Source: a virus (lineage: Duplodnaviria; Heunggongvirae; Uroviricota; Caudoviricetes). Taken from it: a stretch of 7,633 nt of DNA. Below are positions 1,712 to 7,538 of the stretch, in pieces; position 1 is the first letter of the stretch, and the number at the start of each line of letters is the position of its first letter. The position numbers and the translations under genes were made by a program. Location: IMG/VR virus record IMGVR_UViG_2654587509_000013; one strand, written 5' to 3'. The notes under the pieces are model-generated. The model did no database searches. It saw only the letters and a program-made list of their open reading frames with translations, and was not told where the DNA came from.

Positions 1712-2213
1712 AATTCCATCCAGCTTTTTGTTGGTATTGCTGTCGATACGCAAGTTTGAAAGCAATTGCTTTTTCTATAAGTTCGTCAGTTTCACGATCC
1801 ACTACGGCAGGATCAGCAAAAAGCAGTCCGGACTCCACCACATCGCCATATTCTTTGTTTAACCCGGCGATCATGTACGTGATGCTTTTTCCGTCACTAA
1901 TTTCACGATACAACCTGAAATCATTAATCCGGATAGCCTCCATAATTGCAGGCACTAGCGCCGTGAACTTTTCACGCTTATCCCTGGTGTCGATAGCCTT
2001 CCAGCGTTCGAATATCTTCACTCGATTAACGCCAAGCGCTCGCTGATCAACCGCGCCACCTTCATCTGTGACACGCTGAACATCGATGTTCGGGCGCTCT
2101 TTCAAAGCCCAGAATGCTTCAGTGATTAATATCGTCGCCTGCTCCTGTGTCATTCCTGGTCGACATATCCAGGCATCCAGAGCCTCACGAGCCTGTTCAG
2201 GAGTGATTTTCAT
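1692..2213 (-). CDS. Early regulator at the CII position (173 aa), possibly YdaT-like
   Basis: ATG at 2213; its start overlaps the stop of the upstream Cro-like gene by 17 nt and its 3' end overlaps the start of the replication gene. Assignment to the YdaT/CII-like class is by synteny and memory only, not by a motif I can verify. Confidence 0.8.
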   Translation of the reverse strand: MKITPEQAREALDAWICRPGMTQEQATILITEAFWALKERPNIDVQRVTDEGGAVDQRALGVNRVKIFERWKAIDTRDKREKFTALVPAIMEAIRINDFRLYREISDGKSITYMIAGLNKEYGDVVESGLLFADPAVVDRETDELIEKAIAFKLAYRQQYQQKAGWNYEPSFC

Positions 2214-2424
2214 TGTTCAACCGCCCCGCCCGCTTCGTCTTACGATATTCGTCATAAACCTTGGGATCATACAGAAGCTCGCCGCCAGATGCCTCCTGTA
2301 GACGCATCGCGCGACCTTCAGGAACTAGCTCTTGCCATTGAGAAACAGCAGATGGGTCAACGCCAGCAGCTTTCGCTACTTTGGCTTTCGTACCGTAAAA
2401 ATTAATTACGTCTGATTTAAACAT
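2197..2424 (-). CDS. Cro-like HTH regulator (DicC/YdaS-type), 75 aa
   Basis: ATG at 2424 is preceded by a strong SD (GGAGGT). The ORF track start at 2451 is a TTG inside the operator region. Divergent from the repressor gene. Protein has an HTH-like GTKAKVAKAAGVDPSAVSQW segment and a C-terminus resembling what I recall of DicC. Confidence 0.85.
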   Translation of the reverse strand: MFKSDVINFYGTKAKVAKAAGVDPSAVSQWQELVPEGRAMRLQEASGGELLYDPKVYDEYRKTKRAGRLNNENHS

Positions 2425-2501
2425 CGCACCTCCAATATTGAGTTTTCTCAATGCTAATCACTCAAGGAATCTCAAGTCAAGGGTTATTAAGATATCTAAA
2501 T
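2425..2501. promoter_or_regulatory. Divergent promoter/operator region between Cro-like and repressor genes
   Basis: Perfect palindrome TTGAG-TTTT-CTCAA at 2438-2451, followed by direct CTCAAG(G) half-site copies at 2461, 2471 and 2477. Candidate leftward promoter on the minus strand: -35 TTGACT (complement of 2475-2480), 18-bp spacer, -10 TAGCAT (complement of 2451-2456). Confidence 0.6.
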
Positions 2502-2909
2502 ATGAACGAGAAAACTTTAGGTCAACGCATTAGAGAAAGACGTAAGCAGGTAGGCTTAAGTCAAAACGGTTTAAGCAAAGCTGCTGGCGTATCTGGCTCA
2601 TCAATTTCATTATGGGAAAGTGACCATACAGCCCCGCGCGGGCAAAATTTGCATCGCCTCGCCGAGGTATTGCAATGTTCACCAACCTGGATACTGTTTG
2701 GCGACGAGGACAAAACACCAGCTCCCCCTGTTTCACTCGATAGTACCCTAGACTTATCGGAAGATGAGTTAGAGATGCTGCGTTTGTATCGCGCACTTCC
2801 TAAATCAGAGCAACAAGCACAACTCAGCGAACTCCGCGCCCGCGTTGAGAATTTTAATCGCCTGTTCACCGAGCTATTAGAGGCTCGCAAACGCAACAAG
2901 CATCAATAA
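2502..2909 (+). CDS. dicA: DicA-like HTH (XRE-family) prophage repressor, 135 aa
   Basis: N-terminal HTH (LGQRIRERRKQVGLSQNGLSKAAGVSGSSISLWE) and the C-terminal motif VLQCSPTWILFGDEDK match what I recall of E. coli DicA (135 aa). Start taken at ATG 2502 (MNEKTLGQRIR) rather than the upstream in-frame ATG at 2451, which lies in the operator. No S24 peptidase domain, so this is not a LexA-like autocleaving repressor. Confidence 0.85.
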   Translation: MNEKTLGQRIRERRKQVGLSQNGLSKAAGVSGSSISLWESDHTAPRGQNLHRLAEVLQCSPTWILFGDEDKTPAPPVSLDSTLDLSEDELEMLRLYRALPKSEQQAQLSELRARVENFNRLFTELLEARKRNKHQ

Positions 2910-2966
2910 TCATCCCTTCACAAAATTTTAAAGCCTTACATTTCAATGTATTGGCTTTATCTTGCG

Positions 2967-3025
2967 CCAATACTTGAGTTTTCTCATCAAAAAACCTTGA
3001 CGAAAAATAATGAGAAAACTAAATT
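2967..3025 (+). promoter_or_regulatory. Second operator set and putative rightward promoter (OL/pL analogue)
   Basis: CCAATACTTGAGTTTTCTCA (2967-2986) repeats the operator at 2432-2450 with a 1-nt indel, sharing a 13-nt identical core. An inverted partner TGAGAAAACTA sits at 3011-3021. Between them: -35 TTGACG (2996-3001), 18-bp spacer, -10 TAAATT (3020-3025). Confidence 0.55.
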
Positions 3026-3101
3026 ACCTCCATCAACACACCGCACGGTGTTCTCCGCAAACAGTTCCGCTACCCCGGCGTTAAGGGGAAATGAGGTCAG
3101 C

Positions 3102-3254
3102 ATGGATACTATCGATCTTGGCAACAGCGAATCTCTGGTATGTGGCGTGTTCCCCAACCATGACGGTACGTTCACCGCGATGACATATACCAAAAGCAAA
3201 ACGTTTAAAACCGAATCTGGCGCGCGTTGCTGGTTAGCCAGAAACACTGACTGA
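3102..3254 (+). CDS. ydfA: YdfA-like small protein (DUF1391-type), 50 aa
   Basis: ATG 3102 with SD GAGG and a 5-nt spacer. MDTIDLGNSESLVCGVFPNHDGTFTAMTYTKSKTFKTESGARCWLARNTD resembles what I recall of E. coli YdfA/YdaF. Sits immediately downstream of the dicA-like gene, as ydfA does. The ORF track's longer 2946 start spans the operator region. Confidence 0.7.
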   Translation: MDTIDLGNSESLVCGVFPNHDGTFTAMTYTKSKTFKTESGARCWLARNTD

Positions 3255-3265
3255 TGAGGCTGACG

Positions 3266-3631
3266 ATGGAATTTAAAGATTTACCGTCTGATGTACAGAA
3301 AACAGCAGCTCATACATTGCATTCTGTGCTGCGAGAAATCGGGAAAGATATTGCAAGCGAGCCAGCAAAAGATCTGGCCCGGAAAATCAAGACCGCTTTC
3401 GTTGAGCTTTATAATGTTGGCACTGACTCTGAAACTGTCGAGACCAAGACCGTAAGTTCACCAATATTCTCACTTGAGCCAGGCGTATTATCAGGTGAAA
3501 TATGCACCGAGATTTCCAGCGAACTGCTTCCGGTAATACGAGAAGCAATTTGCCGTCGCGGTTTGGATGGAAGTTACGATCATGACGTCCTGCAAGTTCT
3601 CAGGACAATGGTGACTTCACTGGGGATTTGA
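3266..3631 (+). CDS. Hypothetical protein, 121 aa, co-transcribed with the repressor-side operon
   Basis: ATG 3266 with SD TGAGG and a 6-nt spacer. An alternative ATG at 3254 overlaps the ydfA-like stop (TGATG). Amino-acid composition is protein-like; no recognisable motif. Confidence 0.7.
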   Translation: MEFKDLPSDVQKTAAHTLHSVLREIGKDIASEPAKDLARKIKTAFVELYNVGTDSETVETKTVSSPIFSLEPGVLSGEICTEISSELLPVIREAICRRGLDGSYDHDVLQVLRTMVTSLGI

Positions 3632-4050: not shown

Positions 4051-4090
4051 CGCTGCAACGCCCTCTGTTATCAATTTTCTGGTGACGTTT

Positions 4091-4133
4091 GGCGGTATCA
4101 GTTTTACTCCGTGACTGCTCTGCCGCCGTTTTT
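4091..4133 (+). terminator. Possible intrinsic terminator (plus strand)
   Basis: GGCGG (4091-4095) pairs with CCGCC (4123-4127) around a long, partly self-paired loop, followed by a T5 run at 4129-4133. The loop is unusually large for a canonical terminator. Confidence 0.3.
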
Positions 4134-4302: not shown

Positions 4303-4491
4303 ATGAAAACGTTATTACCAAACGTTAATACGTCTGAAGGTTGTTTTGAAATTGGTGTCACTATCAGTAACCCTGTATTTACTGAAGATGCCATTAACAA
4401 GAGAAAACAAGAACGGGAGCTATTAAATAAAATATGCATTGTTTCAATGCTGGCTCGTTTACGTCTGATGCCAAAAGGATGTGCACAATGA
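4303..4491 (+). CDS. Hypothetical small protein, 62 aa
   Basis: ATG 4303 with SD GAGGA and a 7-nt spacer. Its stop overlaps the next start (ATGA at 4488-4491), implying translational coupling. Confidence 0.55.
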   Translation: MKTLLPNVNTSEGCFEIGVTISNPVFTEDAINKRKQERELLNKICIVSMLARLRLMPKGCAQ

Positions 4492-4679
4492 ATTCAGCAT
4501 TTGCGCTTGTTCTGACAGTTTTTCTTGTTTCCGGAGAGCCAGTTGATATTGCAGTCAGTGTTCACAGGACAATGCAGGAGTGTATGACTGCAGCAACCGA
4601 ACAGAAAATTCCCGGTAACTGTTACCCGGTCGATAAAGTTATTCACCAGGATAATATCGAAATCCCGGCAGGTCTTTAA
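4488..4679 (+). CDS. Hypothetical small exported or membrane protein, 63 aa
   Basis: ATG 4488 with an AAGGA SD. N-terminal hydrophobic segment MNSAFALVLTVFLVSG resembles a signal peptide or transmembrane helix; three Cys in the mature part. Confidence 0.6.
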   Translation: MNSAFALVLTVFLVSGEPVDIAVSVHRTMQECMTAATEQKIPGNCYPVDKVIHQDNIEIPAGL

Positions 4680-4772: not shown

Positions 4773-7244
4773 ATGAGTAAAGTCTTTATTTGCGCCGCTA
4801 TTCCTGACGAACTGGCAACAAGGGAAGAAGGCGCTGTGGCTGTAGCCACAGCCATTGAAGCTGGCGACGAACGCCGTGCTCGAGCAAAATTTCACTGGCA
4901 GTTCCTGGAACATTATCCGGCTGCTCAGGACTGCGCTTATAAATTTATTGTCTGCGAGGATAAACCTGGCATACCCCGCCCTGCCCTCGATTCATGGGAT
5001 GCTGAATATATGCAGGAAAACCGCTGGGATGAGGAGTCTGCTTCTTTTGTCCCGGTTGAGACTGAATCCGATCCGATGAACGTCACTTTTGACAAGCTGG
5101 CCCCTGAAGTACAGAACGCTGTCATGGTTAAGTTCGACACATGTGAAAACATCACCGTTGATATGGTTATTAGCGCACAGGAATTGTTGCAGGAAGACAT
5201 GGCAACATTCGACGGACATATCGTTGAAGCGTTGATGAAAATGCCAGAAGTTAACGCCATGTATCCGGAGCTTAAGTTGCACGCCATTGGGTGGGTTAAG
5301 CATAAATGTATTCCTGGTGCTAAATGGCCCGAAATTCAGGCAGAGATGCGCATCTGGAAAAAACGTCGCGAAGGTGAACGCAAGGAAACCGGAAAATACA
5401 CGTCTGTTGTTGATCTCGCCCGCGCCAGAGCCAATCAACAGTACACTGAAAATTCAACAGGAAAAATCAGCCCGGTCATTGCTGCCATTCATCGCGAATA
5501 CAAGCAGACATGGAAAACACTGGATGACGAACTGGCCTACGCTCTCTGGCCTGGTGATGTGGATGCCGGAAACATTGACGGCAGCATCCATCGCTGGGCA
5601 AAAAAAGAAGTTATCGACAACGACCGCGAAGACTGGAAGCGTATCTCGGCATCAATGCGCAAACAGCCTGATGCCCTTCGCTACGACCGCCAGACTATTT
5701 TTGGCCTTGTCCGTGAGCGTCCGATCGACATTCACAAAGATCCCATAGCACTGAACAAATATATCTGCGAATACCTGACGACAAAGGGCGTGTTTGAGAA
5801 TGAAGAAACAGACCTGGGCACTGTTGATGTTCTCCAGTCATCAGAAACACAAACTGATGCAGTGGAAACTGAGGTATCTGATATCCCAAAAAATGAAACC
5901 GCGCCGGAAGCTGAACCATCTGTAGAGCGTGAGGGGCCGTTCTATTTCCTCTTCGCAGATAAGGACGGAGAAAAATACGGTCGCGCAAACAAACTTTCTG
6001 GTCTGGATAAGGCACTGGCTGCTGGCGCCACTGAAATCACAAAAGAAGAATATTTTGCCCGAAAAAATGGCACATACACGGGCTTACCGCAAAATGTAGA
6101 TACCGCTGAAGATTCAGAACAACCAGAGCCGATAAAAGTTACCGCTGACGAAGTAAACAAAATTATGCAGGCAGCCAATATCAGCCAGCCTGACGCCGAT
6201 AAGTTGCTTGCTGCATCACGTGGTGAATTTGTTGAAGGGATTAGTGACCCGAATGATCCGAAATGGGTTAAGGGGATCCAGACCCGCGATTCTGTGAACC
6301 AGAACCAGCATGAATCGGAACGGAACTACCAAAAAGCGGAACAAAACAGCACAAATGCGTTACAAAACGAGCCAGAAACGAAACAGCCTGAACCAGTGGC
6401 GCAACAGGAAGTGGAAAAAGTCTGCACCGCCTGCGGTCAGACCGGCGGCGGCAACTGCCCTGATTGTGGCGCGGTGATGGGCGACGCAACATACCAAGAA
6501 ACATTCGATGAAGAGTATCAGGTTGAAGTTCAGGAAGATGATCCGGAGGAAATGGAAGGCGCTGAACATCCACACAAGGAGAACACTGGCGGCAATCAGC
6601 ATCACAATAGCGATAATGAAACTGGCGAGACGGCAGATCACTCAATTAAGGTGAACGGTCATCACGAAATCACATCCACCAGCAGGACGTGTGACCATCT
6701 AATGATCGACCTTGAAACCATGGGAAAAAATCCTGATGCCCCGATCATCTCAATAGGTGCAATATTTTTCGATCCGCAAACCGGAGATATGGGACCGGAA
6801 TTTAGTAAGACTATCGATCTGGAAACTGCTGGCGGAGTCATTGATCGGGACACCATTAAATGGTGGCTTAAGCAATCACGCGAAGCGCAATCTGCCATTA
6901 TGACCGATGAAATCCCGTTAGATGATGCACTGTTACAATTACGGGAATTTATCGACGAAAACTCCGGTGAATTTTTTGTTCAGGTTTGGGGAAATGGAGC
7001 CAACTTCGACAACACAATTTTGCGCCGTTCATACGAACGGCAGGGGATCCCCTGCCCGTGGCGTTACTACAACGATCGCGATGTACGCACAATCGTTGAG
7101 CTGGGGAAAGCCATAGACTTCGATGCCAGAACGGCTATTCCATTCGAAGGTGAGCGCCATAATGCACTTGATGACGCCCGTTACCAGGCAAAATACGTTT
7201 CAGTTATCTGGCAAAAACTGATCCCGAGTCAGGCTGATTCTTAA
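4773..7244 (+). CDS. Large multidomain exonuclease protein, 823 aa: unknown N-terminal domain, acidic linker, Cys4 zinc ribbon, C-terminal DnaQ-like DEDDh 3'-5' exonuclease
   Basis: Single 824-codon frame. Zinc ribbon CTACGQTGGGNCPDC (C-x2-C-x7-C-x2-C) at 6423-6467. DEDDh motifs: Exo I DLE at 6708-6716, Exo II NFD at 7002-7010, Exo III H-x4-D (HNALDDA) at 7158-7178. Sits at the exo position upstream of the excisionase-like gene. Related prophage genes are often labelled exodeoxyribonuclease VIII-like, but no PD-(D/E)XK motif or partner annealase is visible here. Confidence 0.9.
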   Translation: MSKVFICAAIPDELATREEGAVAVATAIEAGDERRARAKFHWQFLEHYPAAQDCAYKFIVCEDKPGIPRPALDSWDAEYMQENRWDEESASFVPVETESDPMNVTFDKLAPEVQNAVMVKFDTCENITVDMVISAQELLQEDMATFDGHIVEALMKMPEVNAMYPELKLHAIGWVKHKCIPGAKWPEIQAEMRIWKKRREGERKETGKYTSVVDLARARANQQYTENSTGKISPVIAAIHREYKQTWKTLDDELAYALWPGDVDAGNIDGSIHRWAKKEVIDNDREDWKRISASMRKQPDALRYDRQTIFGLVRERPIDIHKDPIALNKYICEYLTTKGVFENEETDLGTVDVLQSSETQTDAVETEVSDIPKNETAPEAEPSVEREGPFYFLFADKDGEKYGRANKLSGLDKALAAGATEITKEEYFARKNGTYTGLPQNVDTAEDSEQPEPIKVTADEVNKIMQAANISQPDADKLLAASRGEFVEGISDPNDPKWVKGIQTRDSVNQNQHESERNYQKAEQNSTNALQNEPETKQPEPVAQQEVEKVCTACGQTGGGNCPDCGAVMGDATYQETFDEEYQVEVQEDDPEEMEGAEHPHKENTGGNQHHNSDNETGETADHSIKVNGHHEITSTSRTCDHLMIDLETMGKNPDAPIISIGAIFFDPQTGDMGPEFSKTIDLETAGGVIDRDTIKWWLKQSREAQSAIMTDEIPLDDALLQLREFIDENSGEFFVQVWGNGANFDNTILRRSYERQGIPCPWRYYNDRDVRTIVELGKAIDFDARTAIPFEGERHNALDDARYQAKYVSVIWQKLIPSQADS

Positions 7245-7255
7245 TGTTCAACTGT

Positions 7256-7287
7256 CGCCGGTTGTGACTGGTATTCTGCAACCGGCG
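7256..7287 (+). other. Stable hairpin between the exonuclease and excisionase-like genes
   Basis: Perfect 9-bp stem CGCCGGTTG (7256-7264) with CAACCGGCG (7279-7287) and a 14-nt loop. No clear U-tract follows, so it may be an attenuator or processing site rather than a terminator. Confidence 0.35.
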
Positions 7288-7316
7288 CTCGTCTGATGTA
7301 AGAGATAAAGAAATCG

Positions 7317-7538
7317 ATGAGCGAAGTAATCATGATTGTCTCTCCCGGCAAATGGGTATCCGAAGAGCAGTTAATTGCGCTGAAAGGAATAAAAAAAGGT
7401 ACGTTAAAAAAGGCCCGGGAAAAATCGTTTATGGAAGGAAGGGAATATAAGCATGTCGCTCATGACGGTATGCCATGGGATAACAGTCCATGCTTTTACA
7501 ACCTGGAAGAAATTGATCGCTGGATTGAGCGCCAGTAA
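7317..7538 (+). CDS. Excisionase-like small DNA-binding protein, 73 aa
   Basis: 73-aa basic protein directly downstream of the recombination-side exonuclease gene, where xis sits in lambdoid prophages. Assignment is by position and general resemblance to prophage excisionase-like proteins; the integrase is presumably beyond the right edge. Confidence 0.7.
   Translation: MSEVIMIVSPGKWVSEEQLIALKGIKKGTLKKAREKSFMEGREYKHVAHDGMPWDNSPCFYNLEEIDRWIERQ

Follow-up and report, generated by a model that had tools for sequence, protein, structure and literature searches.

Does one repressor control transcription on both sides of its own gene at this locus? The window, that is, the whole stretch of 7,633 nucleotides of viral (Caudoviricetes) DNA analysed here, holds a repressor gene with an intergenic region at either end. 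An earlier note on this DNA had proposed that copies of one operator motif bracket the gene, and that a single repressor acts on a leftward lytic promoter as well as on a rightward operon.

The source of the DNA was sought with a 1.1-kb query (window 2200-3300), which matched the chromosome of Escherichia coli strain L65 with 100% identity. The L65 prophage with the query region adjoins rspB and also carries hokD and rem. The rspB-adjacent place and the gene content are those of the K-12 prophage Qin; hence, the window belongs to a Qin-type prophage of E. coli, and it holds the immunity region of a lambdoid prophage of the Qin/mEp460 type. The rem gene is annotated in L65 approximately 6 kb left of the window region, outside the window, and also in phage mEp460_ev081 (annotation only in both). 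A single match covering at least 80% of the query was present in 796 of 5426 complete E. coli genomes. The relevant genes are as follows.

2197-2424, minus strand: Cro-like gene, a DicC homologue of 75 aa and first gene of the leftward (PR-like) operon (WP_000476993.1; Pfam P22_Cro, 59.3 bits).
2502-2909, plus strand: repressor gene, a DicA homologue of 135 aa (WP_001003382.1; Pfam HTH_3).
3102-3254, plus strand: ydfA-like gene (DUF1391), heading the rightward operon under putative control (Pfam DUF1391, 92.6 bits).
4077-4128, plus strand: DicF small RNA, inside the rightward operon (Rfam RF00039, 72.5 bits, E=5.8e-15).
4303-4679, plus strand: dicB (cell-division inhibitor) and ydfD (lysis protein), cargo farther down the operon (Pfam DicB, 136.8 bits; DUF1482, 92 bits; RefSeq).
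4773-7538, plus strand: genes for an 823-aa exonuclease and an excisionase, at the far end of the rightward operon (Pfam domains Rv2179c-like exonuclease and DUF1233 excisionase; RefSeq).

The cro and repressor assignments made earlier hold. The P22_Cro protein is 70% identical to K-12 DicC, and RefSeq labels its gene as a Cro/CI family regulator; the HTH_3 repressor is 57% identical to K-12 DicA over 127 aa (E=3e-52). Besides cro, the leftward genes encode a DUF977 protein, a replication-type protein, and a YdaT-like protein (Pfam/RefSeq annotation). The rightward operon does run toward exonuclease and excisionase genes, as had been described, and by Pfam, Rfam, and RefSeq it also holds DicF, dicB, and ydfD. 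A 121-aa open reading frame lies between the ydfA-like gene and the DicF RNA, and the integrase gene is the next gene after the excisionase gene, just past the window end (RefSeq annotation).

The motif had been located exactly. CCAATATTGAGTTTTCTCA is present at 2432-2450, in the cro/repressor intergenic region, and CCAATACTTGAGTTTTCTCA at 2967-2986, downstream of the repressor gene; the exact core common to both is TTGAGTTTTCTCA, at 2438-2450 and 2974-2986. The inverted partner, first placed near 3011-3021, occupies 3011-3023 with one mismatch, and the minus strand there reads TTTAGTTTTCTCA. Allowing one mismatch or fewer, the window contains three copies in 7633 bases versus a mean of 0.01, and 0 of 200 dinucleotide-preserving shuffles reached three; chance is thus excluded. 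The longest word common to the two intergenic regions (77 and 192 nt) measures 13 nt, a length reached in none of 5000 shuffles. Beyond the locus, the complete 45.9-kb genome of mEp460_ev081 has the same three copies only, at the same stringency. With three mismatches, five matches were found versus 3.75 expected; hence, a possible fourth copy at 2507-2519 (three mismatches, within the repressor gene) is not significant. It is not kept in Buttiauxella, and it was rejected.

The functional core is the 16-bp palindrome ATTGAG-TTTT-CTCAAT at 2437-2452. The CCAATA extension, which had been written as part of the motif, falls beyond the palindrome, and relatives do not keep it as such, so that the repeat stands and the extension as part of the operator does not. 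Within each genome, the 2432-2450 and 2967-2986 copies have some flanking bases in common, apart from a 1-nt indel.

A promoter scan of 2200-3300 gave two promoter-like matches only, and both coincide with motif sites. Both promoters are consensus matches. The elements in the cro/repressor intergenic region are listed below; the palindromic sites carry no strand.

2437-2452: site A, perfect palindrome ATTGAG-TTTT-CTCAAT, at the position of the K-12 operator Oc (OR1 analogue; alignment with K-12 Oc).
2451-2480, minus strand: predicted leftward sigma-70 promoter, -35 TTGACT (2480..2475), 18-nt spacer, -10 TAGCAT (2456..2451) (consensus scan).
2462-2475: site B, weak candidate TCAAG-GAAT-CTCAA (TCAAGGAATCTCAA), 24 bp from A, at the position of K-12 Om (spacing).
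2487-2500: site C, candidate TTAAG-ATAT-CTAAA (TTAAGATATCTAAA), abutting the repressor ATG, at the position of K-12 Oa (palindrome; invariant in Buttiauxella).

With the leftward -35 and -10 placed in this way, the expected start falls within site A. The geometry agrees with that of the K-12 dicC promoter mapped by 5'RACE (PMC3441716). K-12 Oc is a 20-bp inverted repeat that binds DicA in vivo and overlaps the mapped dicC -10; a single base change in Oc abolishes DicA binding, and Oc is needed for dicA activation (PMC3441716). Om and Oa of K-12 show no DicA binding on their own (PMC3441716). The divergent region of the window has one strong site (A) and two weak candidates (B and C), at spacings of 24 and 25 bp. 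Site B is operator-like in part only. Site C overlaps a -10-like TAAGAT (2488-2493) and is unchanged in Citrobacter braakii, a locus of another operator class (class 2 below); therefore, it may belong to a promoter or a leaderless start and not be an operator that carries specificity. A Shine-Dalgarno sequence is absent from the repressor gene, which together with the TAAGAT suggests a leaderless repressor mRNA, like that of lambda cI from PRM.

Downstream of the repressor gene, the following elements were found.

2929-2967, plus strand: hairpin (2929-2959) with UUUAUCUU after it, a candidate intrinsic terminator for transcripts of the repressor gene (folding energy -14.2 kcal/mol, z=-3.28).
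2974-2987: site D, TTGAG-TTTT-CTCAT, exact 13-mer copy of A (motif search; invariant in Buttiauxella).
2997-3025, plus strand: predicted rightward promoter, the dicBp equivalent (lambda PL analogue), -35 TTGACG, 17-nt spacer, -10 TAAATT (consensus scan).
3010-3023: site E, ATGAG-AAAA-CTAAA, inverted copy with one mismatch to the motif (motif search; invariant in Buttiauxella).

Site D ends 10 bp upstream of the rightward -35, and site E fills the promoter spacer and overlaps the first bases of the -10 (common TAA). The rightward promoter that had been thought plausible at the inverted partner is recovered by the consensus scan, with D and E flanking its -35 and overlapping its -10, and there is no third site at this promoter. 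At 36 bp apart, approximately 3.4 helical turns, D and E would lie on different DNA faces. A conserved block upstream of D, TTTCAATGTRTTG (2941-2953), was considered as a third operator and rejected, since it misfits the operator pattern. This block looks IHF-like by eye and lies inside the terminator-like hairpin. The hairpin at 2929-2967 is a candidate terminator of the repressor transcript, and a simple terminator scan did not call it. For a structured leader RNA 3' of the rightward promoter, RNAalifold gave only a weak 4-bp helix, and Rfam (E up to 10) gave nothing credible.

The repressor has a Pfam HTH_3 domain at residues 10-64, and the detected HTH domains fall within residues 6-71 of 135. 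Residues 1-72 are 47% identical to the N-terminal domain of P22 C2 (1ADR, E=8.1e-16; 2R1J, E=3.9e-15), and the P22 C2 homology ends at residue 72. The C-terminal part is short, helical, and not a peptidase; a Pfam search of the repressor found no LexA/S24-type autocleavage domain. The VLQCSPTWILFGDEDK motif is invariant, and the sequence from VLQCSPTWILFGDEDK onward is far better kept than the HTH part. In the alignment, the recognition helix of the repressor has G, S, and L at positions 32, 33, and 37, against N, V, and Q in P22 C2. These positions, which we take to be DNA-reading residues in PDB 2R1J, serve as a lead only. The P22 operator consensus is ATTTAAG-N4-CTTAAAT. The C2 operators so described resemble the sites here in having two 5-bp half-sites around a 4-bp A/T-rich centre, and the left half of candidate site C is P22-like; they differ in the half-site itself, which is TTGAG here and TTAAG in P22.

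To place the sites in a comparative frame, genome contigs were scanned with a DicA alignment. The scan gave nine loci, with Buttiauxella ferragutiae, B. gaviniae, Citrobacter braakii, Citrobacter sp., and K-12-type E. coli as sources; three of them (L003, L004, and L008) come from E. coli-like contigs that had been binned into unrelated MAGs, and L011, being too distant, was left out. PPompW of O157 and phage BUCT709 were added by a tblastn search of phages. The comparison set comprised eight loci in five specificity classes.

The repressors of B. ferragutiae and B. gaviniae are 74-76% identical to that of the window and have the same recognition helix. In these two loci, all three sites are kept as the longest invariant blocks in diverged spacers. 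The block invariant in both is TGAGTTTTCTCAAT at site A, TGAGTTTTCTCA(AT) at site D, where TGAGTTTTCTCA comprises 12 columns of an otherwise diverged spacer, and TGAGAAAACTAA at site E. The earlier note had regarded the loss of the downstream copy from related prophages as evidence against its proposal; this copy is kept in the Buttiauxella prophages, which belong to another genus.

Across the eight loci, each of the five classes has its own palindrome at the same five positions. Site-A palindromes and recognition helices are as follows.

Class 1 (window, Buttiauxella): site A TTGAGTTTTCTCAA; repressor helix SGSSISLWE, Cro-like helix PSAVSQW.
Class 2 (C. braakii): site A TTGAGTTTATTTAA.
Class 3 (K-12 type, Citrobacter NCU1): site A TTAGTCATAACTAA; repressor helix SHVSVSQWE, Cro-like helix LASLYSW.
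Class 4 (PPompW): site A TTAGATTTTCCTAA; repressor helix AHVTISQWE, Cro-like helix LASVAAW.
Class 5 (BUCT709): site A TTAGATTTTTCTAA; repressor helix AHVTISQWE, Cro-like helix APTVYAW.

The recognition helices of the repressor and of the Cro-like protein differ between classes in step with the operators. Site A of each locus was compared with the downstream region of every locus. Class 1 site A had 0-2 mismatches in the downstream regions of its own class, 2-3 in class 2, and 4-6 in classes 3-5; classes 4 and 5 are alike in this matrix. Between the window and the K-12 type (L009), the site-A 14-mer of either one had five or more mismatches in the downstream region of the other. Spacings are kept in the eight loci, with A-B at 24-26 bp, B-C at 25 bp, and a D-E centre distance of 34-37 bp. 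The leftward -35 (AGTCAA/GGTCAA) is kept in 8/8 loci, and a comparable -35, a spacer of 17-18 nt, and a -10 are readable at the place of the rightward promoter in all eight, followed by a conserved CATCAA. Sites A and D lie 496-549 bp (47.2-52.3 turns) apart, and the helical phase of this distance is not kept; hence, OL-OR looping over a phase-conserved distance is without support, although looping as such may occur. Homology between the window and K-12 resumes right after the rightward -10 (CATCAACACACCGCACGG...), which marks the specificity cassette as reaching from the Cro HTH to site E. The span from the Cro HTH to the PL-side operator is the usual one of a lambdoid imm region.

The sites exist, they exceed chance by far, they are conserved, they co-vary with the recognition helices, and they lie on consensus promoter elements. 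It is highly likely, judging from the sequence comparison, that the 135-aa DicA-type repressor uses the three copies as operators; the divergent DicC/Cro-type protein very probably uses them too. Promoter overlap, conservation, helix co-variation, and the K-12 experiments considered next all speak for the earlier proposal that one repressor would act on both promoters.

The closest known system is dicA-dicC-dicBp of K-12 Qin (Yun et al. 2012, PMC3441716), with the same order and orientation of the dicC-like gene, the dicA-like gene, the promoter, ydfA, DicF, dicB, and ydfD. The two also share the rspB neighbourhood, a 135-aa repressor without a cleavage domain, a rem gene within the prophage, five operator positions that align, and identical sequence 3' of the rightward promoter. 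They differ in the operator, which is TTGTTAGTCATAACTAACAA in K-12 and ATTGAGTTTTCTCAAT here, in the HTH parts of both proteins, which have diverged, and in the exonuclease, xis, and int genes, which are full-length here and pseudogenes in K-12. The different operator and the diverged HTH parts point to a separate specificity, so that the allele of the window is probably heteroimmune to K-12 Qin. The arrangement is a textbook lambdoid OR/OL, specifically that of Qin dicA-dicC-dicBp, which the earlier note missed. As far as the account of Bejar et al. (1988) given in PMC10448788 goes, an operator-bracketed repressor design was proposed for Qin at that time.

In K-12, dicBp lies upstream of ydfA, and deletion of dicA raises dicBp activity 22-fold, whereas deletion of dicC has no effect; Rem relieves the repression as an antirepressor (PMC10448788). 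These data bear on a rival explanation, in which the Cro-like DicC homologue is the main reader of D and E, so that no single protein would control both promoters as proposed. The direct in vivo occupancy on both sides of K-12 dicA does come from DicC ChIP-seq, not from DicA: the indicated sites flank dicA and show a palindromic TT(A/C/T)G...C(G/A/T)AA motif, and the signal is strongest at the dicA/dicC locus (PMC11430063). For the DicA site at dicBp, one source gives the location as unknown or low-evidence (PMC7567609), and the Cro recognition helices also change with the operator class. However, the deletion phenotypes in K-12 favour DicA at dicBp, and A, D, and E share their core, with A at the position of the DicA-bound Oc (PMC3441716). 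Because the repressor and Cro of lambdoid phages share operators, reading by DicC and by the repressor is not exclusive. We therefore judge exclusive or predominant use of D and E by the Cro-like protein to be very unlikely.

According to another explanation, the D/E repeat acts as an RNA hairpin (2971-2987 with 3010-3026) that terminates or processes read-through before dicBF, and the similarity to A is secondary. The arms are 17 nt long, 88% complementary, and 22 nt apart; the repressor gene and the operon are co-directional and approximately 190 nt apart, so that read-through must stop somewhere. However, a palindromic operator that occurs twice will always yield complementary copies, and the D/E pairing thus carries no independent information. 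There is no U-tract after the 3' arm, no terminator was called at D/E, a separate terminator-like hairpin lies upstream (2929-2967), and the loop of the proposed hairpin would hold the conserved -35. In the other classes, the sites change with the protein helices, not by compensatory pairing alone. An RNA role as the primary function of the repeat is likewise highly improbable. Least credible is that the repeats arose by chance or are a dead leftover, where the immunity module ends, of a duplication or a recombination junction: K-12 homology does resume right after the -10, which places the sites at a mosaic boundary, and A and D do share extra flank bases beyond the palindrome (with the 1-nt indel), but three copies against 0.01 expected, sites invariant across genera while their flanks diverge, class-specific palindromes at the same five positions in eight loci, and the overlap with promoter hexamers contradict it through conservation and co-variation.

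With operators for the DicA-type repressor as the preferred reading, a circuit can be proposed, in which we infer the binding of the repressor, the transcription starts, the activation of the promoter of the repressor gene, and how induction comes about. The operator would be a 14-16-bp two-fold site, TTGAG-N4-CTCAA, the layout expected for a P22-C2-like HTH dimer. Site A would cover the leftward -10 end and the start point, and repressor bound there would block transcription of cro and of the genes for replication and late functions. If it behaves as K-12 DicA does at Oc, it may also activate its own weak, probably leaderless promoter. Repressor dimers at D and E would silence the ydfA-DicF-dicB-ydfD-exonuclease-xis(-int) operon, which corresponds to that of lambda PL. 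The Cro-like protein would use the same sites, which would give a bistable switch. As the repressor has no S24 domain, induction is expected via Rem or a flip of the switch, not via RecA-mediated cleavage; release would come from an antirepressor (the rem homologue elsewhere in the prophage) or from the DicA/DicC switch.

The design has been known since lambda, and no concept is changed by this locus. Lambda OR/OL also has a repressor gene between two regions with one motif, of which one controls a divergent cro (PR) and the other a co-directional PL operon through recombination genes to xis and int; in lambda, the repressor and Cro share sites in a bistable switch, as proposed for the window. 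In contrast to the three tandem operators 23-24 bp apart in lambda, the PL-like promoter of the window has two sites 36 bp apart, and there is only one strong site at OR. The repressor differs in having no S24 autocleavage domain, hence no direct RecA-dependent induction, and the window has no rex genes and no N gene after the PL-like promoter.

The same immunity region is found in viable phages. In mEp460_ev081 (LR597641) and HannyBb (PP925841), it is 99.2-99.3% identical over 711 bp, with 99.3% in mEp460_ev081, and includes all three sites, and mEp460_ev081 also carries homologues of dicB, exonuclease, xis, int, and rem. Unlike the window, which is a prophage copy in a chromosome, both are complete and viable phages. 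One source calls mEp460_ev081 functional and notes that mEp460_evo81 has genes similar to dicA/dicC, dicB, dicF, and rem (PMC10448788). A literature search found no operator analysis of mEp460_ev081 or HannyBb.

A fuller reading, which we hold tentatively and at rather less than even confidence, joins three elements: an uncharacterised immunity specificity of the DicA/DicC family, the placement of the sites at dicBp, and a speculative roadblock at D/E. For the specificity, TTGAG-T4-CTCAA may be read by a helix with G32/S33/L37, where P22 C2 has N/V/Q. The five-class comparison suggests that a DicA-type protein may act at dicBp through two sites that clamp the -35, the downstream one being fused to the -10. 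More speculatively, repressor bound at D/E might be a roadblock to read-through from its own gene, which is conceivable because a constitutive repressor gene faces the toxic dicBF operon approximately 190 bp away.

This immunity allele is common in E. coli and is also present in viable human-gut phages, and its operator sequence, hitherto uncharacterised, is new. So is the comparative placement of the dicBp operators, which is useful for understanding control of the DicF/DicB cell-division inhibitors. The co-variation of sites and recognition helices over five immunity classes lends sequence-level support to the operator prediction. The matched repressor/operator pairs might be used as orthogonal parts, or to derive a recognition code for P22-C2-like HTH domains.

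The repressor gene (2502-2909, + strand) lacks a Shine-Dalgarno sequence (region 2483-2504). A -10-like TAAGAT is located at 2488-2493, 8 nt upstream of the repressor ATG, and is contained in the palindrome TATTAAGATATCTAAATA; this element does not differ between the class 1 loci (the window and Buttiauxella) and the class 2 loci (Citrobacter braakii). These features suggest that the repressor mRNA is leaderless, like the lambda cI mRNA transcribed from PRM.

Downstream of the repressor gene, the spacer between its stop codon and site D, a predicted operator right of the repressor gene (2974-2987), holds the block TTTCAATGTATTG at 2941-2953, which is unchanged between E. coli and Buttiauxella. 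The K-12 counterpart of this block is ATCAATGAGTTA, which by eye matches the integration host factor (IHF) core WATCAANNNNTTR. The block is also enclosed by a terminator-like hairpin (2929-2959; z = -3.28) with the tail UUUAUCUU. An IHF site upstream of the PL-like promoter is one possible role and a terminator another, and the block may serve as both.

Sites A (2437-2452, a predicted operator left of the repressor gene) and D share left-flank bases outside the palindrome, at 2430-2437 and 2965-2973 in the window. The same sharing was found in B. gaviniae (530-537 and 1064-1072 of locus L006), and the match carries a 1-nt indel in both. The shared flank reads C(T/G)CCAATA[C] in the window, and its B. 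gaviniae counterpart is CTCCAAAC[A]. At site A, the flank is the reverse complement of the Shine-Dalgarno sequence of the divergent cro-like gene. One possibility for its recurrence at site D is gene conversion between the operators.

The palindrome ACACCGCACGGTGT lies at 3038-3051, approximately 7-20 nt past the point at which the rightward operon is predicted to start, and is common to the window, K-12, and PPompW. Other loci carry AATCAC...GTGATT at this position, with both arms altered and complementarity retained. The palindrome was not recovered by RNAalifold, and Rfam gave no match for it. Its role is either that of a hairpin in the 5' leader or that of a DNA site bound by some other factor.

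One gene of this operon is as follows:
4773-7244, full-length exonuclease, 823 aa, whose C-terminal domain is of the Rv2179c-like 3'-5' exoribonuclease/DEDD type.
Its K-12 Qin counterpart, ydfE, is a pseudogene, both truncated and interrupted by IS2; hence, the early-left operon is kept intact in the window prophage copy.

Three contigs (L003, L004, and L008) carry the window-type E. coli prophage region (99% identity) or the K-12-type allele. Their metagenome-assembled genomes are labeled Bacillota, Veillonella parvula, and Collinsella, a placement that almost certainly reflects binning contamination, not host range. A full DicA/DicC-type module was also observed in phage vB_SmeS_BUCT709 (L014, 9270-10838), recorded on Stenotrophomonas maltophilia. 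The BUCT709 repressor is 51% identical, the five-site operator layout is the same as that of the window, and the promoter geometry (TTGACG-17-TAAATT) matches that of the window's rightward promoter. Given this complete module in a Stenotrophomonas phage, the DicA/DicC-type module appears to extend past Enterobacterales.
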